Shown: positions 1 to 16,269 of the stretch, one piece after another
Layout: every line of letters starts with the position of its first letter
Position numbering within the stretch: position 1 is the first letter of the stretch
Origin: an uncultured virus (IMG/VR IMGVR_UViG_3300010278_000172)
Taxonomy: Duplodnaviria > Heunggongvirae > Uroviricota > Caudoviricetes
Length of the DNA: 20,000 nt
Reading direction: 5' to 3' (one strand)
Virus record (IMG/VR): IMGVR_UViG_3300010278_000172
Translations under genes and position numbers: made by a program
Notes under the pieces: model-generated
The model's input: only the letters and a program-made list of their open reading frames with translations
Databases searched by the model: none
What the model was told of the DNA's origin: nothing

Positions 1-1212
1 TACGGTGGCATTCGACGAAGCCCTAATAAATACAGTTATTACACATTGCATTGTACAGGCGATGATGGAACGGTTGTAAGACAGGGAGCTACAGTTGCGA
101 CAAATACAGCGCCACAAGCTAAACTGGCGGCTGTTTCAGAATTTGTTATAACGAGGGAATCTTTCAACAAGGTGTCAATAAGGGTATCAGCTCCTATTAC
201 AGGGGCTATATATTCTGTATCAATAAACGGTGTTCAGTACAGTTTTACAAGTGTGTCCGATGATGAATTATCAATCATTGAAGGCCTGAGTAAAGCTGTA
301 AATCCAGATGGATATAAGGTATCTGTGAATGAAAGCAATATTACATTGGATGTGATCAGTGAATCGGCATCAAGGAGTGGAATACTTGTGCTTTCTGACA
401 ATTTAACAACAGCAAGTGTTACAACACTTGCTGATTTTGCAACTATAGATTATGGAAAACTTATATTTCCTAACGGAACGATAACAATCATGATTACAAA
501 TATTAGTGGGTTCAATGCTGTTGAGAATTTGATTGCACCTACATACGGAAGGTTACAGGAAACGGATGTAGAACTTCGACATTCATATTTGGCAAAATCG
601 GCTATTCGCTCTACAAGGATGATAGACAGTATTTGTTCTCAGTTAATAAATAATGTTCCGAATGTAGAAAGTGCAACAGGATATGAGAACAATACGGATG
701 ATACAGACGAGGAAGGAAGACCTCCGCATAGCGTTGAAATAATAGTAGATGGCGGAGATGAAACAAGTATCGCAAGCATTATTCTGGATAAAAAAGCTGC
801 TGGTATTCAGACGTTTGGCTCTATTTCTGTTAATGTTGCAACAGAGTATGGAGATTCCATTCCTATAAGCTTCAATAGACCAGAATATATTTATGTCTGG
901 ATGAAAGTTACATTAGATGCAGATAAATCATATCTTCCTACAAATTATGCAAACTTGGCGATAAATTCAATTGTCAAAGATGCTTCCAAATTACAGGCAG
1001 GTGACAATATGTTGTCACAGACATTCAATGATGGGATTTATTCGGCAGTGGGCGGTGTAACTTATGTAGATATTAAATGTGCTGCCACAAAAGACAAAGA
1101 GCGTATTCCGACCAGCGATGAATACACAAAGGTAAATATAAATGTTGAAAGCAGACAGAAGATTGTGGTTGCAGATACGAGAATTGAGGTGGTGTATAGT
1201 GGACATTCTTGA
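1..1212 (+). CDS. Baseplate J/gp47-family protein, 5'-truncated by window
   Basis: Frame is open from base 1 (YGGIRRSPNKY...). Motifs GRLQETDVELR, ENNTDDTDEEGRPPHSVEIIVDGG and KAAGIQTFG are typical of baseplate J. Confidence 0.85.
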   Translation, partial: YGGIRRSPNKYSYYTLHCTGDDGTVVRQGATVATNTAPQAKLAAVSEFVITRESFNKVSIRVSAPITGAIYSVSINGVQYSFTSVSDDELSIIEGLSKAVNPDGYKVSVNESNITLDVISESASRSGILVLSDNLTTASVTTLADFATIDYGKLIFPNGTITIMITNISGFNAVENLIAPTYGRLQETDVELRHSYLAKSAIRSTRMIDSICSQLINNVPNVESATGYENNTDDTDEEGRPPHSVEIIVDGGDETSIASIILDKKAAGIQTFGSISVNVATEYGDSIPISFNRPEYIYVWMKVTLDADKSYLPTNYANLAINSIVKDASKLQAGDNMLSQTFNDGIYSAVGGVTYVDIKCAATKDKERIPTSDEYTKVNINVESRQKIVVADTRIEVVYSGHS

Positions 1213-2356
1213 TAAATGGTTGGATGATTTACCGCAACAGTTTCAAGGAAAGAAATACATAGAAGCCCTTATTTCGGTGTTCGCAAAGCAATTAGAGGAT
1301 TTATATAAGGTATTCAAACAGCTTGATACAGAGACAGATTTAGATAGTGCTGTTGGTATGAATTTGGATATGGTCGGAGATATTGTGACACTTACACGAA
1401 AAGAAGCTGGTGTTCTTGCAGGTATTGATGTTGAGGATCCTGTTATTAGCGATGAGAGGTACCGCCAGTTCTTAAAGTATCAGATGCTGGTTAATACAAA
1501 TGAATGTACCTACCATGACCTTATGGACGGATTGGCATTATTATGGGATGTATCTCCGATTTATTACAGAGAAGATCCAGCACTTCCTGCTGTGATTATC
1601 CTCACAATGCCATTTCTTACACCAGGCGGAAAAGTTGTAACATTGGGTGAAGTTCCGATGGTAAAGCCGGCAGGTGTCAGAATTGAATTTGAGTATTATA
1701 TCAAGGCTATCGTTGAGGTAGCCTTTAATTTTTGGATATCATCCTATGACGTACCGAGATGCAACACTATTGTTTGCGGCACACACCCAAAGAGAGCAAC
1801 ACTTGGAACTATTATTGAAGTTCGCTGTGAACAGGATGTGAATGCTTTGATAGCAGCTTTTGAATCAAGCAAAACAGGTACAATTCGGATAGGCGGAACT
1901 GCATATAATGCGACACTTGGACAATTGCTTAAAAAGGATATAGAAATTGAGATTGACAGCAACCTACAAATCGTAGACTTTCTGCAGTCTGGACAAAGTG
2001 TGGCAGGATTGAAGCCAAATAAGGCAAAGAAGGGAATGATAATTCCGAAAGATATTCTTATCGATGGAAGCACATATTTACAGAAATACAACATGCCAGC
2101 TTCTGGCCGTCAAACATCTGGCGGTGGAGTGCTGGCTGATTCTTTATCCGTGGATGTTCAGAGCGGCATACAAGCTGAGAAAAATATAATGCTTGGAACA
2201 TCAACCGAGATATATGCCTCGCCAGAGCACAAAGCTGGTAAAGCATATAAAACGCTTGCTGTTTCATCATCAGAAACAGAGGCAGATGTAAATGTATTCA
2301 TTGCTTCGGCTACCATCAGACGATGTGGAACCAGAAGCTGTGGAAATAAAGAATAG
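1199..2356 (+). CDS. DUF2612-like baseplate wedge protein with a repetitive C-terminal extension
   Basis: Likely GTG start at 1199 after GAGGTG RBS, overlapping the baseplate J stop. LDSAVGMNLDMVGDIV and DERYRQFLK resemble DUF2612; position follows baseplate J. Confidence 0.7.
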   Translation: MDILDKWLDDLPQQFQGKKYIEALISVFAKQLEDLYKVFKQLDTETDLDSAVGMNLDMVGDIVTLTRKEAGVLAGIDVEDPVISDERYRQFLKYQMLVNTNECTYHDLMDGLALLWDVSPIYYREDPALPAVIILTMPFLTPGGKVVTLGEVPMVKPAGVRIEFEYYIKAIVEVAFNFWISSYDVPRCNTIVCGTHPKRATLGTIIEVRCEQDVNALIAAFESSKTGTIRIGGTAYNATLGQLLKKDIEIEIDSNLQIVDFLQSGQSVAGLKPNKAKKGMIIPKDILIDGSTYLQKYNMPASGRQTSGGGVLADSLSVDVQSGIQAEKNIMLGTSTEIYASPEHKAGKAYKTLAVSSSETEADVNVFIASATIRRCGTRSCGNKE

Positions 2357-2367
2357 GAGGTAGCAAG

Positions 2368-2682
2368 ATGGGATTCTGGGAAAAAGATTTTCTCGACAGA
2401 AGACGGCAGGAATGGATGAGCTCTATTCATAAATTCCAGTACCAAGTAAATGGAAATTGGTATGATGCCAAAATCAATAGTAAGAAAATCACAGGCAACA
2501 AGATTGTTTTTATTGTAAGTTTGCTCACCACTCCCAAGACAGCCCACACAATTACCGGAATTCGCCTTTGGGACATTACCGGTCGCATTTGTGGAGGACT
2601 GGAAGTTGCCGTTAAAAGGACGGCAAATCAGGGTGTGTTAGCTAAATTTGAATTTCCAATTTACGAGAAAGGAGATGAATAG
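2368..2682 (+). CDS. Hypothetical phage tail-module protein (104 aa)
   Basis: Strong AGGAGG RBS; lies in the tail operon. Confidence 0.7.
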   Translation: MGFWEKDFLDRRRQEWMSSIHKFQYQVNGNWYDAKINSKKITGNKIVFIVSLLTTPKTAHTITGIRLWDITGRICGGLEVAVKRTANQGVLAKFEFPIYEKGDE

Positions 2683-2684
2683 GG

Positions 2685-3167
2685 ATGAATGTATTACCAG
2701 AATATTTGGAAGGCAACAGAACTGGCTCATACACACCAGAACAGTGGCTTGACGAAGTAAAGGACAAAAATTCGGACGAGATTATCCAGGAGGGAACTCC
2801 AATGGATGCCGAACACTTCAATCACATGGAGCAGGGCATTCATAACAACTCACTTATGTTGGCTCTTTTGTTAGAGAATGTAAAGCATACTCAGCAAAGC
2901 GTAGAGTCTGTTGATGGTGAGGAACTTGAAGTTACATTGACCAACACAAAGGATTTCTATTTTAATAATTCTGTTAAGACTGTGGCGCTTGCGAATATGC
3001 GTAGCACATTGGATTACAGGGTTATCACAGAAGTACAAGGCAATCCTGTAAATGTTGGCGATGTGGTTGTCTATGATAAGCAGGTGAATGGCTTTAAGAT
3101 TGCTTTTACAGGCAGTGCTAAAAGCGTGACTGTTCGTTGCTTTGTACAGGGAGGAGGTACGGTGTAG
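2685..3167 (+). CDS. Phage tail fibre/collar-like protein (160 aa)
   Basis: GGAG RBS; N-terminal IIQEGTPMDAEHFNHMEQGI resembles tail-fibre anchor segments; operon context. Confidence 0.6.
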   Translation: MNVLPEYLEGNRTGSYTPEQWLDEVKDKNSDEIIQEGTPMDAEHFNHMEQGIHNNSLMLALLLENVKHTQQSVESVDGEELEVTLTNTKDFYFNNSVKTVALANMRSTLDYRVITEVQGNPVNVGDVVVYDKQVNGFKIAFTGSAKSVTVRCFVQGGGTV

Positions 3168-3337
3168 TGGCAAATATCATTATTCATAGTGACGAAAGAA
3201 AAGCTGAAACAAACAGAACCCTTCGTGATTATGGTATCAATCCGGAACATGCAACCAAAGCACAAAGAGATATGGCAGATTGCGTAGCCCAGAAGACAGG
3301 CGAAGCCTGCAGAGAATTAAGGAGGTATGACAGATGA
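3167..3337 (+). CDS. Small hypothetical protein (56 aa, MANIIIHSDERKAE...)
   Basis: GTG at 3167 overlaps the upstream TAG, with GGAGG RBS; its stop overlaps the next ATG (ATGA). Confidence 0.65.
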   Translation: MANIIIHSDERKAETNRTLRDYGINPEHATKAQRDMADCVAQKTGEACRELRRYDR

Positions 3338-3678
3338 AAGTCGTAGAGGTAAATGTTGGAAAGAAAATTGAGTACAGTGTATCGAAAAATAAGATTACAT
3401 TTGCTGATGAATTGATGCTCAATTGCGAAAAGTTGGAGAGAGATAATGATGAATGTGTTGACATTTGCATTGCAAAGAATGGGATGATTACTTCTGGCCA
3501 GCTTGGTGAAAAGTATGCAGCACAAATTGAGATTCCGGCAAGGCAGTATGTTGAAAAGGAAGTTCCTAATCCAGATTATGATCCTGAGGTAGAAAACAGC
3601 AGCGAAACAATTATGGAAAGAACCCCTGTTCCGTTCAATATGGCAAATGTTACGCTCAAATTATATGCAATCGAATAA
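3334..3678 (+). CDS. Hypothetical tail-associated protein (114 aa), directly upstream of the DGR target
   Basis: AAGGAGG RBS; ATGA overlap with the previous gene. Confidence 0.75.
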   Translation: MKVVEVNVGKKIEYSVSKNKITFADELMLNCEKLERDNDECVDICIAKNGMITSGQLGEKYAAQIEIPARQYVEKEVPNPDYDPEVENSSETIMERTPVPFNMANVTLKLYAIE

Positions 3679-3689
3679 GGAGGACTATT

Positions 3690-4742
3690 ATGGGAAATTA
3701 TGATCAGATGGCAGCTGCGGTAAGCGAGCTGTCAGGCGGAAAAAATGTGGTATTACTGGATGACATCGGAATGCCATCAATTTATGTAAGAATTCCAAAA
3801 GGAAAAAATTCAGAGCTTGTAAGCGGCCTTAGCGATAATGTTCATTATGCGTTTAATGTGGACAGTGTCGAGAAGACCGCTTTTTATTATTCCAAGTATC
3901 AGAATATTATTGTAAATGAAAGGGCATATTCTCTCGGACACAGAGATCCTGCAAATTCCATAAATTGGGATGCTGCAAGAAAGGCTTGCGAAAATAAAGG
4001 AGCGGGCTTCCACCTTGCAACAATGGCAGAGTGGGCTTATATTGCTCTCTGGTGCCGCAAGAATGGCACTATGCCGCATGGAAACAATAATTACGGAAAA
4101 GATTCGGCTTATACACATGAACACGGCGAGGAATCTTCAAAGGATAGCGGAAAAACTGGAAGATGTTTTACCGGTTCTGGACCTGTAACATGGAACCATA
4201 ACCATCACGGAGATGGCATTTGTGACTTAAACGGAAATGTATGGGAGTGGAATGCAGGCATGCGTCTTGTTGATGGAGAAATCCAGATCATTCCATACAA
4301 TAATGCAGCAATGGGTAGCAAATGTGATATGTCGGCATCCTCTACTCTCTGGAAAGCAATTAAGGCGGATGGCTCGCTTGTAGAACCTGGAACGGCCGGA
4401 ACATTAAAGTGGGATTGGGTATCAGGCAAAATTCAGCTTACTTCTGGTGCGATTACATATAAGACTGATAGCGGTGTCGGTGGACAGTATAAAGATATGA
4501 CACTTGCAAGCGGGCTTACTGCTCCAGAAATTGCAAAGATGTTATTGCTCTACCCAGACGAACCAAACGGAGATTACGCAGGTGATTATCATTGGTTCGA
4601 CCCTGTTGGCGAGCGTTTGCCGCTTTGCGGGGGCGGCTGGAACTCTGGTGCCATCGCTGGTGTCTTCCGCTTGTACCTCGACACTCCCCGCTCCTATGCG
4701 AGCTGGTACGTCGGTTTCCGCTCCGCTTTTGTTGATCTGTAA
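3690..4742 (+). CDS. DGR target protein, FGE-sulfatase/C-type-lectin fold; probable receptor-binding (Mtd-like) protein
   Basis: Motifs INWDAARKAC, HLATMAEWAY, GICDLNGNVWEW and C-terminal GFRSA; the VR encodes 38 residues just before the C-terminus; AAGGAGG RBS. Confidence 0.92.
   Translation: MGNYDQMAAAVSELSGGKNVVLLDDIGMPSIYVRIPKGKNSELVSGLSDNVHYAFNVDSVEKTAFYYSKYQNIIVNERAYSLGHRDPANSINWDAARKACENKGAGFHLATMAEWAYIALWCRKNGTMPHGNNNYGKDSAYTHEHGEESSKDSGKTGRCFTGSGPVTWNHNHHGDGICDLNGNVWEWNAGMRLVDGEIQIIPYNNAAMGSKCDMSASSTLWKAIKADGSLVEPGTAGTLKWDWVSGKIQLTSGAITYKTDSGVGGQYKDMTLASGLTAPEIAKMLLLYPDEPNGDYAGDYHWFDPVGERLPLCGGGWNSGAIAGVFRLYLDTPRSYASWYVGFRSAFVDL
4613..4727 (+). repeat. DGR variable repeat (VR), 115 bp
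   Basis: Aligns without gaps to 5244-5358 with 100/115 identity; all 15 mismatches are at TR adenines. Confidence 0.97.
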
Positions 4743-4764
4743 TCTGTTGCACTGTAATCTGACT

Positions 4765-4784
4765 GAGGCTGCGATAGCAGCCTC
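4765..4784. other. DGR target-recognition hairpin/cruciform GAGGCTGC-GATA-GCAGCCTC (may also act as a terminator)
   Basis: Perfect 8-bp stem with a 4-nt GRNA-type loop starting 38 bp after the VR; T-rich tail follows. Confidence 0.85.
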
Positions 4785-4806
4785 TTATTTTATTTTTTAC
4801 CTTGCA

Positions 4807-4866
4807 ATAACGAAATACGATATAAAATAACAAATAAATCCGAAGCAGAACTATGTGTGGTAGAAT
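4807..4866 (+). promoter_or_regulatory. Putative promoter of avd-TR-RT: operator-like motif (4807-4834) plus extended -10 TGTGgTAGAAT (4856-4866)
   Basis: TRTGnTAnnnT extended -10; the motif is shared with 9655-9682. Confidence 0.6.
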
Positions 4867-4894
4867 GGAAAAAAATATGGTATAGAGGGACTTT

Positions 4895-5230
4895 ATGGAG
4901 GAATTAAAGATATTACAAAAGACCTTCGATATGATGAACTATGCTTATCCTGCATTGGCACAATATCCAAAGGGCGAGAAATTCGCCCTTGTTGTGGATA
5001 TAAAGAGGTGCATGGATGTTATGTTGGAGAGGATTATCGAGGCCAACAAAAAGTATTATAAGAAAACTACACTACAGGAATTAGATGTAGAAGTGGAAAA
5101 GTTAAAGGCATATGTCCGATTGTCATATAACTTAGGTTTTTTACCTCCGAAAAAATATGAACAATGGTCCGGTCTGGTAGTTGAAATTGGCAGAATGGTA
5201 GGAGGCTGGATAAAGAGTGTAAGCAAGTAG
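4895..5230 (+). CDS. avd: DGR accessory variability determinant (Avd), four-helix bundle
   Basis: 111 aa with QYPKGEKFAL, LQELDVEVEKLKAYVRLS and EIGRMVGGWIK; lies directly upstream of the TR. Confidence 0.93.
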   Translation: MEELKILQKTFDMMNYAYPALAQYPKGEKFALVVDIKRCMDVMLERIIEANKKYYKKTTLQELDVEVEKLKAYVRLSYNLGFLPPKKYEQWSGLVVEIGRMVGGWIKSVSK

Positions 5231-5243
5231 GGTACGGAATACT

Positions 5244-5358
5244 GCGTTTGCCGATTTGCGGGGGCAACTGGAACAATGGTGCCAACGCTGGTGTCTTCAA
5301 CTTGAACCTCAACAATCCCCGCTCCAATGCGAACTGGAACATCGGTTTCCGCTCCGCT
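5244..5358 (+). ncRNA. DGR template repeat (TR), part of the DGR RNA
   Basis: Non-coding copy of the VR with 11 AAY and 2 ATY codons in the VR frame (24 adenines); between avd and RT. Confidence 0.95.
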
Positions 5359-5512
5359 CTGCCTTCAAGTCAGATGCTGCAGACCTAATGGGTGTGCAGT
5401 CAGTACAGAGGTGTAAAGGATTCCGTCTCCTTTGCTCTCGCAAAAAAATGTAATGGGCATGAATGCCGGTAGTAGTATAAGCGAATCCCGCAATGCTCTG
5501 AAATGAGATAAT

Positions 5513-6619
5513 ATGTCCATTAAAAATGTGTATGCTCAAATCGTATCTTTTGATAATTTGCTACAGGCTGAGAAAGATGCCCGAGCAGGAAAAAGATATG
5601 AAAATGAGCAGCTTGCATTCTGGGGGAACCTGGAAGACAATATACATTCGATATCCGAAAAACTTAAATGCCATAATTATCCGCCAGACATATACCATCA
5701 TTTTTATGTGTATGAGCCAAAATTGCGAAAAGTAATATTTTCTGATTACACAACAAAGGTAATTCAAAGGGCAGCATACAATGTACTCAATCCTATAGTT
5801 TGTAAAGGGATGATTAGTGATACCTATTCCTGCATAGAAGATAGAGGACAACTTAAATCTATGCAGAGATTAGCAGGGTGGGTTGATTTTGTAGAGAAAA
5901 GCGGTGAACGTTGGTACTATCTGAAAATGGATGTGGAGAAATTCTTCTATCGAATGGATCATGAGGTGCTTATGAGCATAATCCAGAAAAAGATAGGGGA
6001 CAAGGAAGCGGTTAGATTCCTTGAACATTATGTGTGCCATGCTTCCAGAGCATTTGGACTTCCGCTTGGAGTAAAGTCACCACTGGAAATATCGGATAAA
6101 GAAATGCTGTGGGATGTAGGGATTGCCATAGGTGGCGGATTGTCACACATGTATGGCAATATGTATTTAAACCCTATGGACCAAATGGCAAAGAGAAAAG
6201 AGGGCATACAGTATTATATTCGTTATATGGATGATGTGATTATTCTATCGACGGACAAGGAGCTGTTACACAGGTACAAGAATATGTTTTCTGATTTTTT
6301 AGGCGATGTTCTGAAACTTCGATTAAATAATAAAACAGCAATTCGACCTGTCTCACATGGCATGGAGTTTGTTGGTTATACTATTCGCCCTTTTGATGTT
6401 CGATTGAGAAAAAGCACAAGCCTTAGAATGAAAAGGCATTTGAAAACAATACAGGAGCTTTATCGTGATTATGAGATAGACCTTGATAGAGCCCACTCCA
6501 CTCTTATGAGTTATAAGGCCTTGATGGACCATTGCGACTGCAGGGCTTTGGAAAAGAAAATATTTGAGGATTTTGTTCTTACGCACAATCCGAAGGAGGC
6601 TGATACAGACAATGGATGA
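5513..6619 (+). CDS. DGR reverse transcriptase (368 aa)
   Basis: VYEPKLRKV, YYLKMDVEKFF, GIAIGGGLSH, YIRYMDD and GMEFVGY motifs; no maturase or endonuclease extension. Confidence 0.95.
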   Translation: MSIKNVYAQIVSFDNLLQAEKDARAGKRYENEQLAFWGNLEDNIHSISEKLKCHNYPPDIYHHFYVYEPKLRKVIFSDYTTKVIQRAAYNVLNPIVCKGMISDTYSCIEDRGQLKSMQRLAGWVDFVEKSGERWYYLKMDVEKFFYRMDHEVLMSIIQKKIGDKEAVRFLEHYVCHASRAFGLPLGVKSPLEISDKEMLWDVGIAIGGGLSHMYGNMYLNPMDQMAKRKEGIQYYIRYMDDVIILSTDKELLHRYKNMFSDFLGDVLKLRLNNKTAIRPVSHGMEFVGYTIRPFDVRLRKSTSLRMKRHLKTIQELYRDYEIDLDRAHSTLMSYKALMDHCDCRALEKKIFEDFVLTHNPKEADTDNG

Positions 6620-6839
6620 AGACAATATGTTGGAACTGCTCGAACTTTATATGGATATGGTTGAAAAACAGGATGAAATCATATACCGCCTTGGAAAAAT
6701 CGTAGCCAGACAGGCAACGGATATTCAACTGTTGAAAAATGACAGGGAATTTTCGGACGATAAACTGACGGAGGATACAGCAATTGTAGATGAAGTTATC
6801 GGGCAGTATAACGATATGAAAAGCGAATTAGAGCCGTAA
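6612..6839 (+). CDS. Small acidic, coiled-coil-like protein (75 aa, MDEDNMLELLELY...) coupled to the RT
   Basis: AAGGAGG RBS at 6593-6599; ATG 6612 overlaps the RT 3' end. Confidence 0.7.
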   Translation: MDEDNMLELLELYMDMVEKQDEIIYRLGKIVARQATDIQLLKNDREFSDDKLTEDTAIVDEVIGQYNDMKSELEP

Positions 6840-6851
6840 GGCTCTTTTTTT
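6830..6851 (+). terminator. Rho-independent terminator closing the DGR operon
   Basis: AGAGCC-GTAA-GGCTCT followed by a T run. Confidence 0.75.
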
Positions 6852-6879
6852 ATGCCCTTTGGAAGGAGGTGAGAGAACA

Positions 6880-7188
6880 ATGGAGGATCCAATTACAAGA
6901 GCTGAGTATGAAGAATACCAAAAGCGAATGGAGCAGGAAGACCACAGGCAGAACCGACGGATTGAACAGTTGGAGGAAAATACCAAGCAGATCAACGCTC
7001 TTACGGTATCAATAGAAAAACTGGCACAGAGTGTTGAAAGCATGGTCAGGGAGCAGGAGGCACAGGGGAAACGTCTCGTGTCTTTGGAAAGCAAAGACGG
7101 AGAAATGTGGAGAAAAGTCGTTGGTTATGTAATAACTGCGGTAATAGGAATTGTCCTAGGATTTGCATTTACGCAAATTGGAATGTAA
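6880..7188 (+). CDS. Coiled-coil protein with a C-terminal TM helix (XhlA-like lysis-associated protein)
   Basis: AGGAGGTG RBS before ATG 6880; heptad-rich body and hydrophobic tail; first gene of the lysis cassette. Confidence 0.65.
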   Translation: MEDPITRAEYEEYQKRMEQEDHRQNRRIEQLEENTKQINALTVSIEKLAQSVESMVREQEAQGKRLVSLESKDGEMWRKVVGYVITAVIGIVLGFAFTQIGM

Positions 7189-7221
7189 CTTTAGTTGAGA
7201 TTATTTATAGGAGGAATCATC

Positions 7222-7548
7222 ATGAACATGGAATTTATTATTGCTAATGCGTCACAGTTACTTGTTGTAGTTGCGGTTATCTGTACACTGATTTCTGTAA
7301 TTACAGAGTTCACAAAAGAGATTGGGATTCTTAACAGAATTCCTACATCTTTGCAGGTCTTAATCCTGTCAATTATAATTTGCGTCACAGCCTTTTTTGC
7401 ATATATTTCATATGCGAAAATCACCTTCGTGTGGTATTACCTCGTGGCTGTAATTTTTGCTTCATTCATTGTTGCTATTGTTTGCTGCAAAGGTTGGGAA
7501 TATCTGATTACTATTTGGAAAAGGTTCTATAAGCCGGAGGATAAATGA
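7222..7548 (+). CDS. Putative holin (about 3 TM helices)
   Basis: AGGAGG RBS before ATG 7222; three hydrophobic stretches and a charged C-terminus; upstream of the endolysin. Confidence 0.7.
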   Translation: MNMEFIIANASQLLVVVAVICTLISVITEFTKEIGILNRIPTSLQVLILSIIICVTAFFAYISYAKITFVWYYLVAVIFASFIVAIVCCKGWEYLITIWKRFYKPEDK

Positions 7549-7796
7549 GAACGGTGATTATGGTCTACATAATCATTGCAATTTTAGGATTCACAGCAGG
7601 AGTGATTTTGCTTTGCAGGGCAATGTATAAATCTATATCCAAAAGACACACAGAGAATACACCGGGGATAGTAATATTCCCGGTATTTCTTGTGTTAACA
7701 TCAATAGCATGGCCGCTGTGTCTAATTGCACTTTGTGTACTGACCATAAAAGAATTGGATAATGAACAAAATAACTATGATCAAAGAGATTTGTAG
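7545..7796 (+). CDS. Small two-TM membrane protein in the lysis cassette
   Basis: ATGA overlap with the holin; two hydrophobic segments. Confidence 0.55.
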   Translation: MRTVIMVYIIIAILGFTAGVILLCRAMYKSISKRHTENTPGIVIFPVFLVLTSIAWPLCLIALCVLTIKELDNEQNNYDQRDL

Positions 7797-7805
7797 GAGG
7801 AACAC

Positions 7806-9611
7806 ATGAAAGAACAGGATTTTATTCAGAAAATATGTGGATATGCGATAAGTGATATGAAAGAGAACGGAATTCTCGCCTCTGTCACGATTGCTCAGGC
7901 TATTCTTGAAAGTTCCTGGGGCACATCTGAATTGGCGAAGAAAGCTAATAATTACTTCGGCATGAAATGCTCTCTGAGCAGCAACTCGTGGGGAAGTGTA
8001 TGGGATAGAGTATCAAAATACACAAAAGTCACTAACGAGCAGGATGAGGCCGGAAAAATTTATACTATCAAAGCGGATTTTAGGGCATATCCAGACATAG
8101 AAATGAGCATAAAGGACCATTCAATGTATCTTGTTGGTGCTATGAATGGAACGGAACATAGATATTGTGGTATCGCAAACGAAAAAGACTACAGAAAAGC
8201 GGTTGAAATCATTAAAGCTGGAGGATATGCCACAGATATAAATTATGTGTCTAAGATTTGCTCAATCATAAAGAAATATGAATTAACACAGTATGACGAA
8301 ATGGAGGAATTGAATATGGGAATTGAAATCAGAAAGCAGATTGCAACGAATAGTCCCTGCAATAAAACGGGAGATGAAATTACTGTAAAGGGCTCTATGT
8401 TACATAGTGTAGGGTGTCCGCAGCCTAAGCCGGAAGTATTTGCAAAGATTTGGGAGACTTCTACAGGAGCCTGTGTTCATGCAGTTACAGGCGCTGACGC
8501 TTATGCAATTCAGTGTTTACCTCTTTTCCCGGAGCGGAAAAAGGCTAGAAGAGGATGGCATGGAGCAAGTGGAAAGAATGGCAGTGTCAACAACACACAT
8601 TTATCTCTTGAAATGACAGAGCCGGCTACAATTAAGTATGTGGGAGGGGCTACATGGATTGAGACAGGAGACGGAAGCAATACCAAGAGACATGTCCTTG
8701 CAACATATGCGAATGCAGTACAGGTATTTGCTAAATGGTGCAAGGAATTTGGGCTAAATCCATTGGAGGATGGTGTAATTATCTCACATCATGAGGGAAA
8801 TCAGAGAGGTATCGCAAGCAATCATGGGGACGTTGAGCACATTTGGAACAAGTTCGGACTTACTATGGATCAGTTTAGAGAAGATGTTAAGAAAGCCATG
8901 GGAGGACAGACGATTGACACAGTGCCAGATGCACCAGTAGATAACAGCAGCGATGATACAAGTTCACAGGCTGTCAATCCTTTGAGTGGTTCTGTGAAGA
9001 TTATTTACACAGGTGATGATGGACTTAATGTAAGAAAAGCACCTTGTATATTAGACAAGTATGTTGATCATGTTGAACATGCAGGCACATTCACTGTGGT
9101 TGGTATATCAGCAGATGAAAAGTGGTACAAGTTAAAGAGCGGGCTTTTTATCACAACCATACCTGAATATGTATCATTCAAAGCAACACCAGAGCAGAAG
9201 CAGCAGACAGCAGGCACAGGATATTACAGAGTAAGAAAGAACTGGGATGATGCGGACTCACAGATTGGAGCATTCAAGAATCAGAACAATGCCATTGAAT
9301 TATGTAAGCAGAACAGCGGATACAAGGTATTTGATAATGATGGCAATGAGATCTATCCTTGCATCAAAGATGATGGTACTCCTTTTAAGTTCCGGGTGAC
9401 AATTCCTGATCTCAGAATCAGAAAAGGACCAGGAACTACTTATGATTACTGGAAGAAAAATGGAAGTCCGGAATATACTGGTAAAAATGTATTTACAATC
9501 ATTGATACAGCTGAAGGTCCGGGAGCTAAAGTCTGGGGATTATTAAAATCGGGAGAAAAAGACAGAGACAGATGGATTTCTCTTGATGAAGATTATGGAA
9601 ACAGACTGTAA
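7806..9611 (+). CDS. Endolysin: GH73 glucosaminidase + Amidase_2 + SH3b-like/cell-wall-binding domains
   Basis: IAQAILESSWG, NNYFGMK and GGYATD (GH73); SMLHSVG, WHG, LEM and ISHHEG..NHGD (Zn amidase); LNVRKAP and LRIRKGPGT (SH3b-like). Confidence 0.9.
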   Translation: MKEQDFIQKICGYAISDMKENGILASVTIAQAILESSWGTSELAKKANNYFGMKCSLSSNSWGSVWDRVSKYTKVTNEQDEAGKIYTIKADFRAYPDIEMSIKDHSMYLVGAMNGTEHRYCGIANEKDYRKAVEIIKAGGYATDINYVSKICSIIKKYELTQYDEMEELNMGIEIRKQIATNSPCNKTGDEITVKGSMLHSVGCPQPKPEVFAKIWETSTGACVHAVTGADAYAIQCLPLFPERKKARRGWHGASGKNGSVNNTHLSLEMTEPATIKYVGGATWIETGDGSNTKRHVLATYANAVQVFAKWCKEFGLNPLEDGVIISHHEGNQRGIASNHGDVEHIWNKFGLTMDQFREDVKKAMGGQTIDTVPDAPVDNSSDDTSSQAVNPLSGSVKIIYTGDDGLNVRKAPCILDKYVDHVEHAGTFTVVGISADEKWYKLKSGLFITTIPEYVSFKATPEQKQQTAGTGYYRVRKNWDDADSQIGAFKNQNNAIELCKQNSGYKVFDNDGNEIYPCIKDDGTPFKFRVTIPDLRIRKGPGTTYDYWKKNGSPEYTGKNVFTIIDTAEGPGAKVWGLLKSGEKDRDRWISLDEDYGNRL

Positions 9612-9634
9612 TAGTCAAGACGGGCAGTTGCTCC

Positions 9635-9714
9635 ATAACTTATACCGATAAGATATAACACAATTCGCTATAAAATAACAAACGACACAAAAAGATGTCA
9701 GAAAATGCTATTTT
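9635..9714 (+). promoter_or_regulatory. Putative promoter of the XRE gene: two operator-like 17-mers (9635-9651, 9655-9671) plus extended -10 TGcTATTTT (9706-9714)
   Basis: ATAACT-N5-CGATAA and ATAACA-N5-CGCTAT; 9655-9682 matches 4807-4834 at 24/28. Confidence 0.55.
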
Positions 9715-9736
9715 ATAACGGAAGGAGCAACGACGT

Positions 9737-9994
9737 ATGATAAGAATTTTACTATCTACAAAGCTCGGCGAAATGAAATGGAGTCAGGCGGATCTGGCCA
9801 GGGCAACCGGAATCAGACCCAACACCATCAGCGAATTGTACCATGAGTACACAGATAGGGTGAATTTGGAACACCTCGACCTAATATGCGAGGCTCTACA
9901 TTGCGAACTCGATGAACTGATTGTTAGGGTGCCAAATGATTATGCGAAGATTACCCACACCAGATCCGGCTCCTTGATTTCGTCAGACAAGTAG
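9737..9994 (+). CDS. XRE/Cro-C1 (HTH_26-like) transcriptional regulator
   Basis: SQADLARATGIRPNTISELY...LDLICEALHCELDELI; AAGGAG RBS. Confidence 0.9.
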   Translation: MIRILLSTKLGEMKWSQADLARATGIRPNTISELYHEYTDRVNLEHLDLICEALHCELDELIVRVPNDYAKITHTRSGSLISSDK

Positions 9995-10018
9995 TGCTGC
10001 AACACTGCTGTCATAGAG

Positions 10019-10049
10019 AAAGACGTTCAAGGAACGAACGTCTTTTTTT
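10019..10049. terminator. Likely bidirectional terminator between the convergent XRE and GGCT genes
   Basis: AAAGACGTTC-N7-GAACGTCTTT followed by a T run. Confidence 0.75.
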
Positions 10050-10061
10050 ATACCACAATAT

Positions 10062-10505
10062 TTATCTACATTCAATGGTATTTCTATCCAATGAATTCTC
10101 AAATAGTGCTAAATCAAAATTGTTATCAATATATCCCTGTCGGATAGTTTCTATGTAGGTCAAAGATGGTCTTCCGGGTGCACGCTGTTGGTCCATAATA
10201 TAGACCATAGCTCTTTTCTTTTTTCCGCCAATATCAACCATTACATTCTGCTTATAATAATATCGGGGATATCCTTCGTATATATCTAATCTTTTCTCGT
10301 CTTCCGGTTCAATGTTCCATAGTAAAACAGGTACATATGAACCCTGCTTTTTGGCTATTGTTGCGTGCGAATTGGTTGCACTGCCTCTGTATAAAAGTTC
10401 CCAGTTAGTTAATTGCCCAGTACCATAAATACTCGCAGAGGGGCATCTATAAGCCATTTGCTTTAAGTTGAGATTACTTCCGTATGCTACATACAATTTT
10501 TTCAT
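10062..10505 (-). CDS. Gamma-glutamylcyclotransferase (AIG2-like/GGCT family)
   Basis: LYVAYGSNL N-terminal motif and LDIYEGYP catalytic Glu motif. Confidence 0.9.
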   Translation of the reverse strand: MKKLYVAYGSNLNLKQMAYRCPSASIYGTGQLTNWELLYRGSATNSHATIAKKQGSYVPVLLWNIEPEDEKRLDIYEGYPRYYYKQNVMVDIGGKKKRAMVYIMDQQRAPGRPSLTYIETIRQGYIDNNFDLALFENSLDRNTIECR

Positions 10506-10681
10506 GCCGATACCTCCTCAATTTTAATTATTCTTATCCATGGATTTAACTCGCCTCTTGCCATTGACCTAGCAATGGTTTTATTTGGAGCTTTTACATG
10601 GTATTTATCAGATATACCACCAGATATCATTATTCTGTACATTTTCCAAGGTGTGTCCGGGTTATTCGTTCGTCTTGCCAT
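10502..10681 (-). CDS. Small basic protein (59 aa, MARRTNNPDTPWKMYRIMISGGISDKYHVKAPNKTIARSMARGELNPWIRIIKIEEVSA); not in the ORF track
   Basis: AGGAG RBS; TGA overlaps the GGCT ATG (ATGA). Confidence 0.65.
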   Translation of the reverse strand: MARRTNNPDTPWKMYRIMISGGISDKYHVKAPNKTIARSMARGELNPWIRIIKIEEVSA

Positions 10682-10726
10682 ATTTTCTCCTATCTCCCCG
10701 TTTTGCCGCTAGGTCAGCACTTTTTA

Positions 10727-11650
10727 CTAAGCTGCCCGACAAGCCATTCCGGCAGCTTTTTTAAGTGGTGTCATAAGATGAAGCCTGCATGTTTTAAATT
10801 CGTCTCCATAAAGTCCCAGGCGGTGGGTAAGAATGTTTCTCATAATTGTAACTTTCTGTTCTGGTGAGTACCCATCCATTGAACGGAATACAATTTTTTC
10901 TTGTGAAGTGATAGCCCATGCTGATACCGCCAAACAAAACTGTATATAGGCCTTGATTTTTCCTGCGTGAAGTGTGCTGTTAAAAAGTCTGAATTCCACT
11001 GTACCCTTGGTGAAGAAAGAATGGAGATTTACTCCATGATATCTTGTGGAATTGTAATGCTGATGATCGATTCCACCGCAATAACCATCATTTGCTCTGC
11101 TATACCAGATTTCTTCGGCTTTTTCTTTTGTAAGATTCTTATCCTTTTTCATGGCATCAAGTAGCGTTTTGTTAAGTTTGTGGCACCAGCTACTCTCACG
11201 GTCTCCGATTTGGAGTGCTTCGTAAATCAGATCCTGTCTGGCTGTCATAAAGTTAACTAATCTTCTGAGAGATACTGCTGTATGGTTTGCACCATCGACA
11301 TGGATATGAATACCGCAACTGCTATGAGCCTTTGCTCCGTTCTCTCGGAGTTTTCGTATGATGTTTTGGAGAAGTTCAATGTCGGAATAATTGAGCGGCG
11401 GTGTTACAAATTCGACTCTGTATTCATCAAGAGGCTCGCTTGTATCATCGTTTCTTATTGGTGTGATAGATGAATCTCTCATAATTTTCCATTTGCGAGC
11501 TGCCTGATCAGCAATCGTGCGTGTGTGGTAGCAATTTGATTCTGGATGAGAAGGTGTTGTTCCAAGAACTCCGGCAACGAGACGAGCTGCTTTTTCTCTT
11601 GTAATACCTGTCATTTCTACTTCAACTCCGAATAATTGATTTTTTAACAT
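10727..11650 (-). CDS. Putative amidoligase (Amidoligase_2, COOH-NH2 ligase type 2)
   Basis: FGVEVE, DSSI, VEFVTPPL, SCGIHIHV, RYHGVN and TVEFRLF motifs; AGGAGG RBS. Confidence 0.88.
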   Translation of the reverse strand: MLKNQLFGVEVEMTGITREKAARLVAGVLGTTPSHPESNCYHTRTIADQAARKWKIMRDSSITPIRNDDTSEPLDEYRVEFVTPPLNYSDIELLQNIIRKLRENGAKAHSSCGIHIHVDGANHTAVSLRRLVNFMTARQDLIYEALQIGDRESSWCHKLNKTLLDAMKKDKNLTKEKAEEIWYSRANDGYCGGIDHQHYNSTRYHGVNLHSFFTKGTVEFRLFNSTLHAGKIKAYIQFCLAVSAWAITSQEKIVFRSMDGYSPEQKVTIMRNILTHRLGLYGDEFKTCRLHLMTPLKKAAGMACRAA

Positions 11651-11710
11651 ATATTTATCCTCCTAAATTGTTTTTCTGTTTTATTGAACTTTTATTCTGT
11701 TTCTATGAAT

Positions 11711-11738
11711 ATATTACCATATGTACACCCAGTGTCAA
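11711..11738 (-). promoter_or_regulatory. Sigma-A promoter of the amidoligase operon
   Basis: Minus strand TTGACA-16 bp-TAATAT with an upstream TG. Confidence 0.65.
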
Positions 11739-11789
11739 TGCTTTTTTCTAATATTCTGAATATTTTTTCTGGAAAAGCAGAATAAAAAG

Positions 11790-11818
11790 TTGACAAAACA
11801 GAAAAACGAATTTATAAT
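11790..11818 (+). promoter_or_regulatory. Consensus sigma-A promoter
   Basis: TTGACA (11790-11795), 17 bp spacer, TATAAT (11813-11818). Confidence 0.85.
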
Positions 11819-11835
11819 AAAACAGAGGTGATTAT

Positions 11836-11997
11836 ATGATTGATGAAAGATTGAAAGAGCAATACAATCAATCGGTTGTCGAGCTAAAGGAAGCTCTTAA
11901 AAGGGAGCGTATTTTTAACAGGATTTACCGAAATATGATTGCGATAATGGATAAATTAGAGAAAATTTTGCGAAAGACAGGGGGAGAAAGAAGATGA
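11836..11997 (+). CDS. Small helical protein (53 aa, MIDERLKEQYNQSVVELKEALKRERIFNRIYRNMIAIMDKLEKILRKTGGERR); not in the ORF track
   Basis: GAGGTG RBS just after the consensus promoter; TGA overlaps the next ATG. Confidence 0.65.
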   Translation: MIDERLKEQYNQSVVELKEALKRERIFNRIYRNMIAIMDKLEKILRKTGGERR

Positions 11998-12747: not shown

Positions 12748-13275
12748 TTATTTCTTTTTCTTATCAAATAAAGCCTGTACAAGGTGATCGCTCAATTCCT
12801 GAGAAGGCACTTTGGCATGTCTCTGGTAAGTATCCAGTTCTGGGTACTTATATCTCCATTCATCATATTCTTCCTTGCTGATTTCACCGTTTTCCAGTTT
12901 GTCAGCCTGTTCCATCCATGCACGAAGCATCTGATCTACAGATGAGCCGGGAGCAGATATGGAACGGTCAAGACAGAGATAAGGCTGTCCGCTTATATTT
13001 TTGATTTTCAGACCGTACATATCTTCCAGTGCAAACAATGTGTGCATTAAACCGTCATAAGTATCAATATCAGGCACTGTTAAAGCATGAGTATTGACAT
13101 CGAAGATCTGAGACATTTGTTTTACAAGATCAATTTTAGGAACTCTGGCTTCTGATTCATACTGAGCCATGCGGACATCTGAGGTTTTACCCTTGAATCC
13201 CAGTAGTTCTCCGAGTTGTTTTTGCGTCATGCCCTTGCGGTTGCGAAAAAATTTGATACGTTGTCCGATTGCCAT
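12748..13275 (-). CDS. XRE-family repressor of the IME (175 aa)
   Basis: Start MAIGQRIKFFRNRKGMTQKQLG after an AGGAGG RBS; N-terminal HTH; divergent from xis-int. Confidence 0.9.
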   Translation of the reverse strand: MAIGQRIKFFRNRKGMTQKQLGELLGFKGKTSDVRMAQYESEARVPKIDLVKQMSQIFDVNTHALTVPDIDTYDGLMHTLFALEDMYGLKIKNISGQPYLCLDRSISAPGSSVDQMLRAWMEQADKLENGEISKEEYDEWRYKYPELDTYQRHAKVPSQELSDHLVQALFDKKKK

Positions 13276-13336
13276 TGTTATTTGCCTCCTTATATATGAC
13301 ATTTCGTGTGTTGCCATGATTGATTGTGATATGAAA

Positions 13337-13491
13337 TAAAACAATTCTGTTTAGGCTCAGTATAGCATGAGCAAATTTGGATAGCAAGAAGAACTTAAAC
13401 AAAACAATTTAATATTCTTGCCGAAACTACTTGACTTAAATAAATATGTTTAGTATCATGCAAATGTAATAACCTAAACAAATTGCGTTAA
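13337..13491. promoter_or_regulatory. Divergent promoters with four palindromic operators (YTAAACA-N4-TGTTTAR)
   Basis: Plus strand TTGACT 13431-17 bp-TATCAT 13454; minus strand TTGCTA 13387-17 bp-TATACT 13364; operators start at 13337, 13395, 13436 and 13474. Confidence 0.7.
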
Positions 13492-13512
13492 GAATGAAAG
13501 GGGAGATGCGAT

Positions 13513-13695
13513 GTGACGAACAGAACTTTTATGACAGTAGAAGAAGTTGCAGCGGAAATGGGAGTTTCCAAGTCTTATGCTTATAAGATTGTCAAACAGC
13601 TAAATGAAGAATTACAGAAGCTGGGTTATCTTACGGTGGCAGGCAGGGTGAATACCAATTATTTCCGTAAAAAAGTATGCTACAGCGAAGCGTAA
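13513..13695 (+). CDS. xis: Excisionase-like HTH protein
   Basis: FMTVEEVAAEMGVSKSYAYKIVK; directly upstream of the integrase. Confidence 0.75.
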   Translation: MTNRTFMTVEEVAAEMGVSKSYAYKIVKQLNEELQKLGYLTVAGRVNTNYFRKKVCYSEA

Positions 13696-13716
13696 GAGAA
13701 AGAGAGGAGAATTGGT

Positions 13717-14817
13717 ATGAGCATTTACAAAGATAATGCCACTGGGAAGTGGCGAGTGGTCTATCGTTATAACGATTGGACAGGAAAAACGAAACAAACC
13801 TCCAAACGAGGATTTCCTACGAAACGGGAAGCTCAGATGTGGGAACACGAACAGATGTTAAAGCATGATGCAAAACTGGATATGACTTTCGCAAGTTTTT
13901 ATGAAATCTATGTAGAAGATAAAAAAGAACGAATCCGGGATAACACATGGGGAACGAAAGGTCATATTGCAAGAACAAAGATTCTTCCATATTTCGGAGA
14001 GCGTAAGATTGCTGAGATAGAGCCAAGGGATATCATTGCATGGCAGAATCATTTACTTGCTTGCCGGAAGCCAAATGGACAACCATATTCTGCTTCGTAT
14101 TTGCAGAAGATTCACAGCCAGTTAAGTGCCGTTTTTAATCACGCAGTTGATTTTTACCATCTGCCCTCTAATCCGGCACAGAAAGCAGGAAATATGGCTT
14201 CGGAAGAGCATAAGGAAATGTTGTTCTGGACGAAAGAAGAATATCTGAAATTCGCAGATGCCATGATGGATAAACCAGTTTCCTACTACGCATTTGAAAT
14301 GCTGTACTGGTGTGGAATCCGTTTGGGAGAGTTGTTGGCACTGACACCTGCAGACTTTGATTTCAAATCCCACACGTTGCGAATCAATAAGTCTTATCAG
14401 AGATTGAACAGGGAAGATGTAATCACACCACCAAAGACATTAAAAAGCAATCGAACGATTAAGATGCCGCAGTTCTTATGTGATGAGATGCAAGATTATA
14501 TGGCAATGCTTTATGACCTGAAAGACGATGACAGAATCTTTACGATTTCTAAATCCTATTTGCATCATGAGATGAACAGAGGGGCGAAAGAAGCAGGCGT
14601 AAAAAGAATCCGGGTGCATGATCTGAGACATTCGCATGTATCACTGCTGATTAATATGGGATTTTCGGCGCTTGCAATTGCAGATCGTGTGGGACATGAG
14701 AGTATTGATATCACTTACCGATATGCTCATTTGTTCCCGACAAAGCAGACTGAAATGGCTGAAAAGCTGGATATCGAAAGGATGGAAAAATCAAATGGAG
14801 AAGAATCTGGACAGTAA
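13717..14817 (+). CDS. int: Tyrosine recombinase/integrase
   Basis: N-terminal arm-binding region (KRGFPTKREA); catalytic residues in GIRLGE, K, HDLRH, VGH and Y (TYRYAH). Confidence 0.95.
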   Translation: MSIYKDNATGKWRVVYRYNDWTGKTKQTSKRGFPTKREAQMWEHEQMLKHDAKLDMTFASFYEIYVEDKKERIRDNTWGTKGHIARTKILPYFGERKIAEIEPRDIIAWQNHLLACRKPNGQPYSASYLQKIHSQLSAVFNHAVDFYHLPSNPAQKAGNMASEEHKEMLFWTKEEYLKFADAMMDKPVSYYAFEMLYWCGIRLGELLALTPADFDFKSHTLRINKSYQRLNREDVITPPKTLKSNRTIKMPQFLCDEMQDYMAMLYDLKDDDRIFTISKSYLHHEMNRGAKEAGVKRIRVHDLRHSHVSLLINMGFSALAIADRVGHESIDITYRYAHLFPTKQTEMAEKLDIERMEKSNGEESGQ

Positions 14818-15118
14818 AGGAAGATGGAGAAACAAAATTGTAGCATTCCGGGTATCACCGGAAGAGGCAGAGCAAATTGATGTATGTGTCCGGTTGTCAG
14901 GACTCAGCAAACAGGACTATATCACGAAACGATTAACTGATCGGGAAATCGTGGTGCAGGGAAATCCAAGAGTTTATAAAGCGTTGAGAAACCAGATGAC
15001 AGAGATTTATGAAGAACTGAAACGTCTGGAAAGGTGCAGTGATGAAAATGGCGAGTTGCTGAGTACCCTGAGACTGGTCGCAGAGACATTGAAGGGATTG
15101 AAAGGGGAAAATGAATGA
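14795..15118 (+). CDS. MobC-like ribbon-helix-helix protein
   Basis: RNKIVAFRVSPEEAEQID..LSGLSKQDYI RHH pattern; ATG 14795 overlaps the int 3' end. Confidence 0.7.
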   Translation: MEKNLDSKGRWRNKIVAFRVSPEEAEQIDVCVRLSGLSKQDYITKRLTDREIVVQGNPRVYKALRNQMTEIYEELKRLERCSDENGELLSTLRLVAETLKGLKGENE

Positions 15119-16269
15119 CAGCAAAAGAAAAAATGACTGCTCCGATTACATCTGTTGGCGCAGATGTGGAACAGCCATCAAGTAATAAATTAACCAACCA
15201 AAGTATAGCAGATTTGCCCGGCAAGGGCAATCTGCAAGCCACAAATAATGCGGGAAATACAGCAAAATCAGCAAATAAAAAGAATCCGGATGATCTGGAA
15301 ACCGTTTCTATGATGGAATTATATGATACTGCATATCCACCGAAGCTGCCGATTGTAGATGGACTTCTGTATAACGGAACGTATTTGTTTGTGGGTTCAC
15401 CGAAAATCGGGAAATCATTTTTTATGGCACAGATCGGGTATCACATCAGTAAAGGACTTCCATTGTGGGGCTTTTCAGTCAGACAGGGAACTGTTCTTTA
15501 TTTGGCACTGGAAGATGATTATGCAAGGTTGCAGAAGCGATTATCACAGATGTTTGGAATGGAAGGCAGTGAGAATTTTTATTTCGCTACAAAATCCAAA
15601 TCGCTCAATGACGGACTGGAAAGACAGCTTGTAACGTTTGTGACAGAGCATAAAGATGCAAGGCTGATCATCATTGATACTCTTCAGAAAGTACGTGAGG
15701 TTGGTGGAGATAAATTCAGTTATGCCAGTGACTATGAGATTGTAACAAAGCTGAAAGCGTTCAGTGACAAATATGGCATCTGTTTTCTGGTAGTGCATCA
15801 TACGAGAAAGATGGAATCTTCAGACAGTTTTGATATGATTTCCGGCACGAATGGTCTGCTGGGAGCTGCAGACGGAGCGTTTGTTATGCAGAAAGAAAAG
15901 CGGACAGATAATAAGGCAGTTCTGGAAGTGGCAGGGCGAGACCAACAGGATCAGAAATTGTGGCTGAACTTTAACCGTGAGAGATGTGTCTGGGAACTTA
16001 CCAAGACAGAAACAGAACTCTGGAAAGAACCAGAAGATCCATTGTTGGAGAAAATCAAAGAACTTGTAACAGAAACTCAGCCAGAGTGGATTGGCACAGC
16101 AACAGAATTGGTACAAGTCCTGCAGGTGGAAATGCAGCCGAACGCATTATCAAGAAAATTAAATGTCAGCCTGGAACGTCTGATTCTGGAATATGGAATT
16201 CAGTATAAAACAGAGCGGGGACACGATGGAAGAAAAATCAGATTGACCTTTGTTGGAAAACAAGCGTGA
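15115..16269 (+). CDS. AAA_25/RepA-like helicase (replication ATPase)
   Basis: Walker A GSPKIGKS, LYLALED, Walker B LIIIDTLQ, VVHHTRK. Confidence 0.88.
   Translation: MTAKEKMTAPITSVGADVEQPSSNKLTNQSIADLPGKGNLQATNNAGNTAKSANKKNPDDLETVSMMELYDTAYPPKLPIVDGLLYNGTYLFVGSPKIGKSFFMAQIGYHISKGLPLWGFSVRQGTVLYLALEDDYARLQKRLSQMFGMEGSENFYFATKSKSLNDGLERQLVTFVTEHKDARLIIIDTLQKVREVGGDKFSYASDYEIVTKLKAFSDKYGICFLVVHHTRKMESSDSFDMISGTNGLLGAADGAFVMQKEKRTDNKAVLEVAGRDQQDQKLWLNFNRERCVWELTKTETELWKEPEDPLLEKIKELVTETQPEWIGTATELVQVLQVEMQPNALSRKLNVSLERLILEYGIQYKTERGHDGRKIRLTFVGKQA

Follow-up and report, generated by a model that had tools for sequence, protein, structure and literature searches.

The 20,000-nucleotide stretch of DNA analysed here (the window), held in IMG/VR as uncultured virus record IMGVR_UViG_3300010278_000172, contains between positions 3690 and 6851 a block of genes and repeats that we read, with a probability of about 0.93, as a complete diversity-generating retroelement (DGR) in a temperate tailed phage of gut Lachnospiraceae, diversifying a C-type-lectin (CLec) protein of the TaqVP type. 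All parts of such an element, namely a target gene ending in a variable repeat (VR), an avd gene, a template repeat (TR), a structured spacer RNA and a reverse transcriptase (RT), are present and intact on the plus strand, and the two repeats differ at template adenines only. Relatives of the phage make it plain that this element has changed the VR many times over and, measured against the divergence of the phages, recently.

The repeat pair carries most of the argument. Positions 3600 to 7000 of the window were inspected, the repeats were aligned with MAFFT and the mismatches were tallied by script. The VR (4613..4727, plus strand) encodes residues 308-346 of the target, and the TR (5244..5358, plus strand) begins 14 nt past the avd stop codon. 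The two align over 115 bp without gaps, their homology stopping sharply on either side, and all 15 mismatches fall at TR adenines (6 A>G, 5 A>T, 4 A>C). There are 24 adenines in the TR, and in the frame of the target open reading frame (ORF; 3690-4742) they take up positions 1-2 of 11 AAY codons and position 1 of two ATY codons. Stop codons therefore cannot arise, as NNY gives 15 residues, NTY gives four and neither gives a stop, and the number of possible proteins computes to 15^11 x 4^2 = 1.4e14. The 13 variable codons correspond to residues 312, 316, 318, 319, 322, 327, 329, 331, 332, 336, 338, 340 and 341. A second VR was searched for both in the window, where none was found, and in the nearest genome (G001), which has one TR and one VR only. 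The initial annotation had given the coordinates of the repeats, the 15 adenine-only mismatches, the codon classes and about 10^14 variants, and alignment and script reproduced these exactly; its two peptide strings are the translations obtained here. The intact avd, YMDD-type RT and hairpin that it had noted are all there, with the ORFs open, and its call of a DGR in target-avd-TR-RT order agrees with the gene order and with matches in Pfam, PHROG and NCBIfam.

One might suppose a plain duplication whose two copies, VR and TR, drifted apart by chance, which would explain the existence of the repeat and nothing more. The probability that 15 random mismatches would all land on 24 of 115 sites is 5.5e-13 (computed), the mismatches pooled over the relatives fall at adenines in 252 of 253 cases, and an Avd equivalog, an RT and an RT-14 RNA are adjacent. 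This explanation is refuted by the A-only mismatches of window and relatives alike, and its likelihood is negligible.

The relatives comprised the nearest genome plus the virus record, 26 loci of IMG/VR and 12 loci of species genomes, the last being metagenome-assembled genomes (MAGs) of Lachnospiraceae and Clostridiales together with a single contig of 2.8 kb that had been binned as Bacteroides. In a scripted scan of 41 sources, comprising the window and L001-L040, both repeats were recovered in 18, corresponding to 17 distinct pairs; elsewhere the region was absent, had diverged too far to match the pattern, or contained N within the VR, as in L001 (the same contig as L003) and L031, which were excluded from the counts. 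Over the 17 distinct pairs the repeats differ at 252 of 407 A sites vs 1 of 1548 non-A sites, the substitutions from TR to VR being 125 A>G, 69 A>C and 58 A>T. In 11 of these pairs the TR is identical to that of the window while the VRs are all different, and every one of the 24 A sites varies. Ten close loci diverge from the window by 0.64-2.23% when the VR is set aside; inside the VR, 13-18 of the 24 A sites differ and none of the 91 other sites, so that VR turnover is much faster than background divergence. Of 22 distinct repeat pairs from more distant loci, 19 place 85% or more of their mismatches on an adenine of the downstream copy; in the other three (L021, L026, L114) the longest internal repeat is not a TR/VR pair and is uninformative on their DGRs. 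Furthermore, contigs from four public runs, one from each of four studies, were aligned to the locus. Three of these runs span it, and in them every VR difference among those listed lies at a site equivalent to a TR adenine (18 others are unlisted). Recent activity, as proposed in the initial annotation, is backed more strongly than the letters of the window alone allow, by near-identical phages that within the VR differ at A sites only, and the restriction of variation to TR-A positions, which it had set as a test, is seen in relatives and in contigs of public runs. In the fourth run, X2, a contig break inside the VR was considered as a sign of heterogeneity and rejected, the loose end reading into TR-identical sequence with words common to the TR.

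The same data bear on whether the cassette, intact as it looks, has fallen silent in this lysogen, leaving VR differences that record past events in the phage lineage. Such a history would agree with a comparison confined to contigs, in which no within-sample heterogeneity was seen, and with the existence of derivatives without the element. An example is P0105, a database protein of 485 aa in which target residues 1-227 are fused to the RT from about residue 111; the fusion implies a deletion of ~1.5 kb that removed VR, avd, TR and the RT N-terminus, making it a dead derivative of this DGR. However, all ORFs and RNA elements of the window are intact, an unchanged TR accompanies all-different VRs in the 11 pairs mentioned, and phages only 0.6-2.2% apart are rewritten at more than half of their A sites. 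We consider a silent cassette unlikely, and the element is probably active in this particular lysogen as well.

The RT (5513..6619, plus strand; 368 aa) contains a YMDD box within IRYMDDVIIL and matches Pfam RVT_1 (7.7e-15) and phrog_1423 (1.9e-120). Its residues D240 and D241 are invariant in an alignment with 12 relatives taken from DGR loci, and all 12 of these lie in loci with A-only repeats. When 50,697 deposited phage records were searched, the best matches were those of Bacillus phage BalMu-1 (40% identity), Clostridium phage Saumur (39%) and Faecalibacterium phage FP_Lagaffe (37%), covering 95-96% of the RT, and all 118 matching records stayed below 60% identity. At residues 203-212 (window 6117-6137) the clade of the window reads IGGGLSH vs IGNLLSQ in the relative L090; we take SQ to be the usual form in DGR RTs. 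Moreover, in five loci, L002 (= L030) and L012-L014, window positions 5400-6450 are only 65-84% identical. This divergent patch of ~1.05 kb covers the 3' half of the spacer and about 310 RT codons, that is most of the RT, and its flanks (target, TR and the last ~55 RT codons) are 98-100% identical in the same loci. Judging from these alignments, the RT allele has been exchanged within an otherwise identical cassette. Both alleles, which share 86% amino-acid identity, accompany diversified VRs.

The remaining parts of the cassette are equally recognizable. The avd gene (4895..5230, plus strand) encodes the accessory variability determinant, a protein of 111 aa that matches Pfam bAvd (5.5e-31), phrog_3206 'Avd protein of DGR' (4.2e-42) and the NCBIfam equivalog NF033474 (116.3 bits vs a cut-off of 80). 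The interval between TR and RT holds a structured RNA (5357..5496, plus strand), identified by cmscan as Rfam RT-14 (RF02921) over the whole model (1-144 of 144) with 79.6 bits vs a gathering score of 48.1 and an E value of 1.6e-11. RF02921 is filed by Rfam as a small RNA (sRNA), its function unstated, and a literature search pairing 'RT-14' with DGR found no paper. From its position, starting at the end of the TR, the region can be read as the spacer part of the DGR RNA, and by analogy with the DGR RNA of phage BPP-1 we presume that it has a role in cDNA priming.

The 3' end of the VR (4711..4747, plus strand) resembles an IMH element (named for its part in initiating mutagenic homing), in that an A-free stretch of 17 nt common with the TR (4711-4727, 11 G/C) is followed by VR-specific sequence. 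The flanks read TTTGTTGATC at the VR vs CTGCC at the TR, constant in 18 of 18 sources holding the VR/TR pair. By the example of BPP-1, these two ends would function as IMH and IMH*, respectively. Past 4727 and 5358 the flanks of VR and TR diverge, and the TR side has the RT-14 RNA in place of a hairpin. On the VR side, a GC-rich hairpin (4765..4784, plus strand) follows the target stop codon, with an 8-bp stem (6 GC pairs), a GATA loop and then a T run; its start lies 22 nt past the stop codon and 37 nt past the last position of VR/TR identity. Hairpins of phage DGRs have been described with GC-rich stems of 7-10 bp and 4-nt 5'-GRNA loops, situated 4-34 bp from the VR, and the examples given include a Eubacterium rectale prophage (Guo 2011, PMC3240598). 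Stem and loop of the window hairpin match this GRNA/GC-stem pattern. In the relatives the loop stays GATA, GGTA or GGCA, and the stem takes about eight different, compensating sequences. The hairpin is thus a candidate for the hairpin or cruciform by which a DGR recognizes its target, and at the same time a terminator-like site.

A plausible scenario for the working of the element can be drawn by analogy with BPP-1. A transcript carrying the TR and the structured RT-14 spacer would be bound by a complex of RT and Avd, and would be reverse transcribed with random misincorporation opposite template adenines. The resulting cDNA would then replace the VR at the 3' end of the target, guided by the IMH end and by the downstream hairpin with its GRNA loop, so that 13 codons could be rewritten into any of about 1.4e14 proteins free of stops. 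The biochemical steps of this retrohoming are presumably those of the BPP-1 system.

The target gene (3690..4742, plus strand) encodes 350 aa with the VR at its C-terminus, and its product is a TaqVP-like variable protein with a CLec fold of the formylglycine-generating enzyme (FGE)-sulfatase subtype. It matches Pfam FGE-sulfatase (2.3e-8) and phrog_2889 (1e-142), and a profile built from 58 homologues finds Protein Data Bank entry 5VF4 with an E value of 2.1e-80 over target residues 5-347. The AlphaFold2 model of the target has a mean predicted local distance difference test (pLDDT) of 83.4 and a predicted template-modelling (TM) score of 0.88. In Foldseek comparisons it reaches a query-normalized TM score (TMq) of 0.89 with 5VF4, that is TaqVP, at 39% identity, and only about 0.3 with formylglycine-generating enzymes, TvpA and Mtd (Mtd entries 1yu0-1yu4: 0.28-0.30, E values of 5e-3 to 2.6e-2). 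A Pfam scan gave no Mtd-type match. The target is therefore a full-length homologue of TaqVP and not a member of the Mtd family, to which its likeness is functional only. The family is very large, with 4366 proteins at E <= 1e-3 and single 90%-identity clusters of 7528, 3624 and 1080 members.

In TaqVP, a monomeric, single-domain CLec protein of the FGE subtype that is varied by a prophage DGR of Thermus aquaticus, the nine variable residues are reported as solvent exposed in the available text (PMC6328139). In a C-terminal profile alignment combined with the codon table, all nine of them (I344, D348, N351, V354, Y361, N364, S368, R370 and G372) align without gaps to variable codons of the window target, at residues 312, 316, 319, 322, 329, 332, 336, 338 and 340. 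Four further variable codons of the window (318, 327, 331 and 341) go beyond those of TaqVP, and the invariant W317 and W339 of the target align with W349 and W371 of TaqVP. By this homology, the variable residues probably lie on a solvent-exposed face of the target. As a separate observation just upstream of the repeat, the window has G at position 4599 (Asp304), vs A (Asn) in all four aligned runs and in loci L001 and L002. Lying 14 nt before the VR/TR homology begins, this site shows an ordinary single-nucleotide polymorphism and not a DGR change.

As to function, the position and fold of the target suggest a receptor-binding protein of the virion, whose variation may shift the host range. 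An alternative is that the diversified CLec protein binds another ligand, such as a gut glycan or another surface, or serves the lysogen, with no host-range switch involved. TaqVP, according to the consulted part of its description, is a monomer of one domain and lacks those by which Mtd trimerises (PMC6328139), the Foldseek scores of 0.28-0.30 set the target apart from Mtd, and searches of Pfam and NCBIfam found no tail-fibre domain in it. For TaqVP-like proteins in general, the part of a recent survey available to us suggests a tail-fibre role without showing it (10.1101/2024.11.15.621889), and for TaqVP itself receptor binding is likewise no more than suggested (PMC6328139). On the other hand, the target gene closes the baseplate/tail block ahead of the lysis genes, and target residues 286-348, the VR region, match phrog_5302 'tail protein'. 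The N-terminus of the target, inspected by eye, is without a hydrophobic signal-like stretch, so that the protein is probably released solely at lysis or along with the virion. Furthermore, the small ORF upstream is always co-conserved with the target and could supply an adaptor. A role away from the receptor is rather unlikely in our view, and we favour a putative receptor-binding protein.

Several points weigh against a working DGR with an exposed, receptor-directed target, and should be set beside the evidence above. NCBIfam offers no model that would identify the RT as one of a DGR, and its best matches (group II intron RT and Drt3a) fall far below their cut-offs. The hairpin, at 37 nt, lies slightly outside the 4-34 bp range quoted for phage DGRs, and it is also terminator-like, by which its role in the DGR becomes inseparable by sequence. 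The target model has a pLDDT of only 70-73 over residues 311-330, and exposure of the variable residues is argued by homology with TaqVP, for which the accessible part of the structural report gives no known attachment to the virion (PMC6328139). Finally, the public runs were compared as contigs and not as reads. Having weighed these points, we retain the complete DGR of a Lachnospiraceae phage as the best explanation of the locus.

Just downstream of the RT is a small gene, here called orf70 (6627..6839, plus strand; 70 aa, function unknown), with a strongly conserved N-terminal motif, LELL..Y....EKQDE.I. The orf70 family has no match in Pfam, PHROG or NCBIfam and none in deposited phages, and the ESM Atlas returned only unnamed viral clusters at 0.89-0.90 and no family. 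In 35 of 35 loci an RT ORF lies directly upstream of orf70. These RTs have at least 50% identity to that of the window in 29 loci, 23-31% (tblastn) in two and an undetectable relation in four, and the orf70 loci with unrelated RTs are genuine DGRs with different targets. Among 48 loci holding the neighbouring lysis-region gene, some of which end early upstream and many of which are contigs already counted, RT and orf70 occur together in 16, an RT-like match without orf70 in 7, neither in 25 and orf70 without an RT in none. In locus L075, homology to the window starts at 6837, and the mosaic breakpoint thus coincides with the orf70 stop codon. Membership of orf70 in the lysis module was considered and is unlikely, as L075 has the lysis genes at 96-97% yet no orf70. 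From its neighbourhood, orf70 is clearly linked to the DGR/tail module, most likely as a bystander gene of that module. It would be a long shot to see in orf70, perhaps together with the 114-aa ORF upstream of the target, an accessory factor linked to DGRs in Lachnospiraceae phages that has not been listed until now; the proposal stems from the RT upstream in 35 of 35 loci, from the lack of orf70 in all 25 RT-less lysis-gene loci and from the L075 breakpoint at the stop codon. A complex prediction for RT and orf70 scored 0.00 with controls not run, and is uninformative either way.

The cassette is placed at the tail-lysis junction of a tailed phage by the baseplate-type genes upstream and the lysis cassette downstream, which also supports the tail-module setting proposed at first annotation. 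Upstream there are a DUF2612/baseplate-type protein (1142-2356) with baseplate-type PHROG matches and small PHROG families of unknown function. Immediately before the target lies the ORF of 114 aa (3334..3678, plus strand; function unknown, phrog_8734 8e-43), which belongs to the context and is not a proven part of the DGR. It is found upstream of the target at 34-100% identity (tblastn) wherever a locus extends so far, and its product could be an adaptor or assembly partner of the target. A terminator-like hairpin with a T run (6830..6845, plus strand) closes the block. Downstream follow a phrog_937 gene (labelled 'hemolysin'), which we take to be XhlA-like, two small ORFs and a glucosaminidase-amidase endolysin (7806-9611). 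Relatives in the integrated state lie inside long contigs of Lachnospiraceae MAGs and in isolate-sized runs; the host is a gut Lachnospiraceae and the phage is temperate and tailed. Window positions 1-9700 gave no megablast match to deposited phages, and all known members of the lineage come from metagenome, MAG and IMG/VR records. No tRNA gene was found in the window.

The junction itself has a broader record. Eight loci with related lysis-region genes (L056, L060-L063, L104, L106 and L109) have DGRs of other types at this tail-lysis junction, with RTs of no detectable or 21-23% tblastn identity to the window RT, other targets, and A-only or nearly A-only mismatches. The tail-lysis junction looks like a hot spot for DGRs. 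Further to the right, homology to related phages reaches at least 11860, in a stretch that includes a helix-turn-helix (HTH) gene. A GGACT/AIG2 (gamma-glutamyl cyclotransferase-like) gene stands beside an Amidoligase_2 gene on the minus strand at 10062-11650, both with phage PHROG families. L075 is 96-97% identical to the window over 6837-10500 and 10675-11860, its left module being unrelated, and the window has 174 extra bases at 10501-10674. From 12748 to 19962 the prophage is adjoined by a second mobile element, with genes for an HTH regulator (minus strand), a tyrosine integrase (13717-14817), NikA-like and AAA_25 proteins, a MobA/MobL relaxase (17368-18909), TnpV and a serine resolvase. 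The contigs from runs X1 and X17 break off some 5.5-5.6 kb beyond 6851; assuming collinearity with the window, this would be close to 12.4-12.5 kb.

The element is a very clean natural DGR, in which near-identical phages of a bacterial family abundant in the gut have at least 17 differently rewritten VRs beside a template that is identical or nearly so. It thus offers a good system for the ligands of TaqVP-type variable proteins, for the question whether the virion carries them and for the rate of DGR turnover in the gut. Small testable leads on how DGR cassettes are assembled and exchanged come from orf70, from the swapped RT allele with the same TR, and from the several unrelated DGR types at the tail-lysis junction.

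Compared with known systems, the RNA between TR and RT is an instance of Rfam RT-14, matched over the whole model above its gathering score. Deposited phages are alike in their DGR RTs, those of BalMu-1, Saumur and FP_Lagaffe being the best matches at 37-40% identity, and unlike in having no nucleotide match to positions 1-9700 and no match to orf70. The BPP-1 DGR (mtd-avd-TR-brt) shares the order of target, avd, TR and RT, the C-terminal VR in a CLec fold, the AAY-rich TR codons, the IMH end that is free of A and rich in GC, and the GC hairpin downstream, whose 4-nt loop fits GRNA. In contrast to BPP-1, the window target is without the beta-prism and beta-sandwich trimerisation domains of Mtd, the host is a Gram-positive gut anaerobe and the loop is GATA instead of GAAA. 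The BPP-1 architecture named in the initial annotation therefore stands for the gene order and fails for the target, which is not a homologue of Mtd (Foldseek TM 0.28-0.30). In gut Bacteroides, 'TaqVP-like' targets of prophages have been grouped as 'domain group 2', and the accessible text suggests, without showing it, that they are receptor-binding parts of tail fibres (10.1101/2024.11.15.621889). They resemble the window target in being prophage-borne, single-domain and 5VF4-like, whereas that survey, as far as its available part goes, covers Bacteroides and the window lineage is assigned to Lachnospiraceae and Clostridiales MAGs.

A close counterpart is the T. aquaticus DGR, catalogued as TG-AVD-TR-RT with code B1, VR class CLec1 and an FGE-sulfatase domain (Wu 2018, PMC5758913). 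In the same catalogue, as consulted in part, the largest target category, with 71 of 372, is category b, defined by an FGE-sulfatase domain with a CLec1 VR at its C-terminus; many DGRs from Lachnospiraceae also appear there, most of them belonging to other classes (PMC5758913). The window target, with an FGE-subtype CLec fold, a VR at the extreme C-terminus and no appended domains, belongs in category b. It has in common with the T. aquaticus system the B1 architecture with a CLec1 VR in an FGE-sulfatase domain, a target homologous over its full length, the nine variable positions of TaqVP and both invariant tryptophans. The two systems differ in diversity, with 9 variable codons (3e9 variants) in TaqVP vs 13 (1.4e14) in the window, and in host, a thermophile vs mesophilic gut Lachnospiraceae, and the window lineage has population evidence of repeated rewriting. 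The element is thus an ordinary member of a well-described class of DGRs and introduces no new principle.

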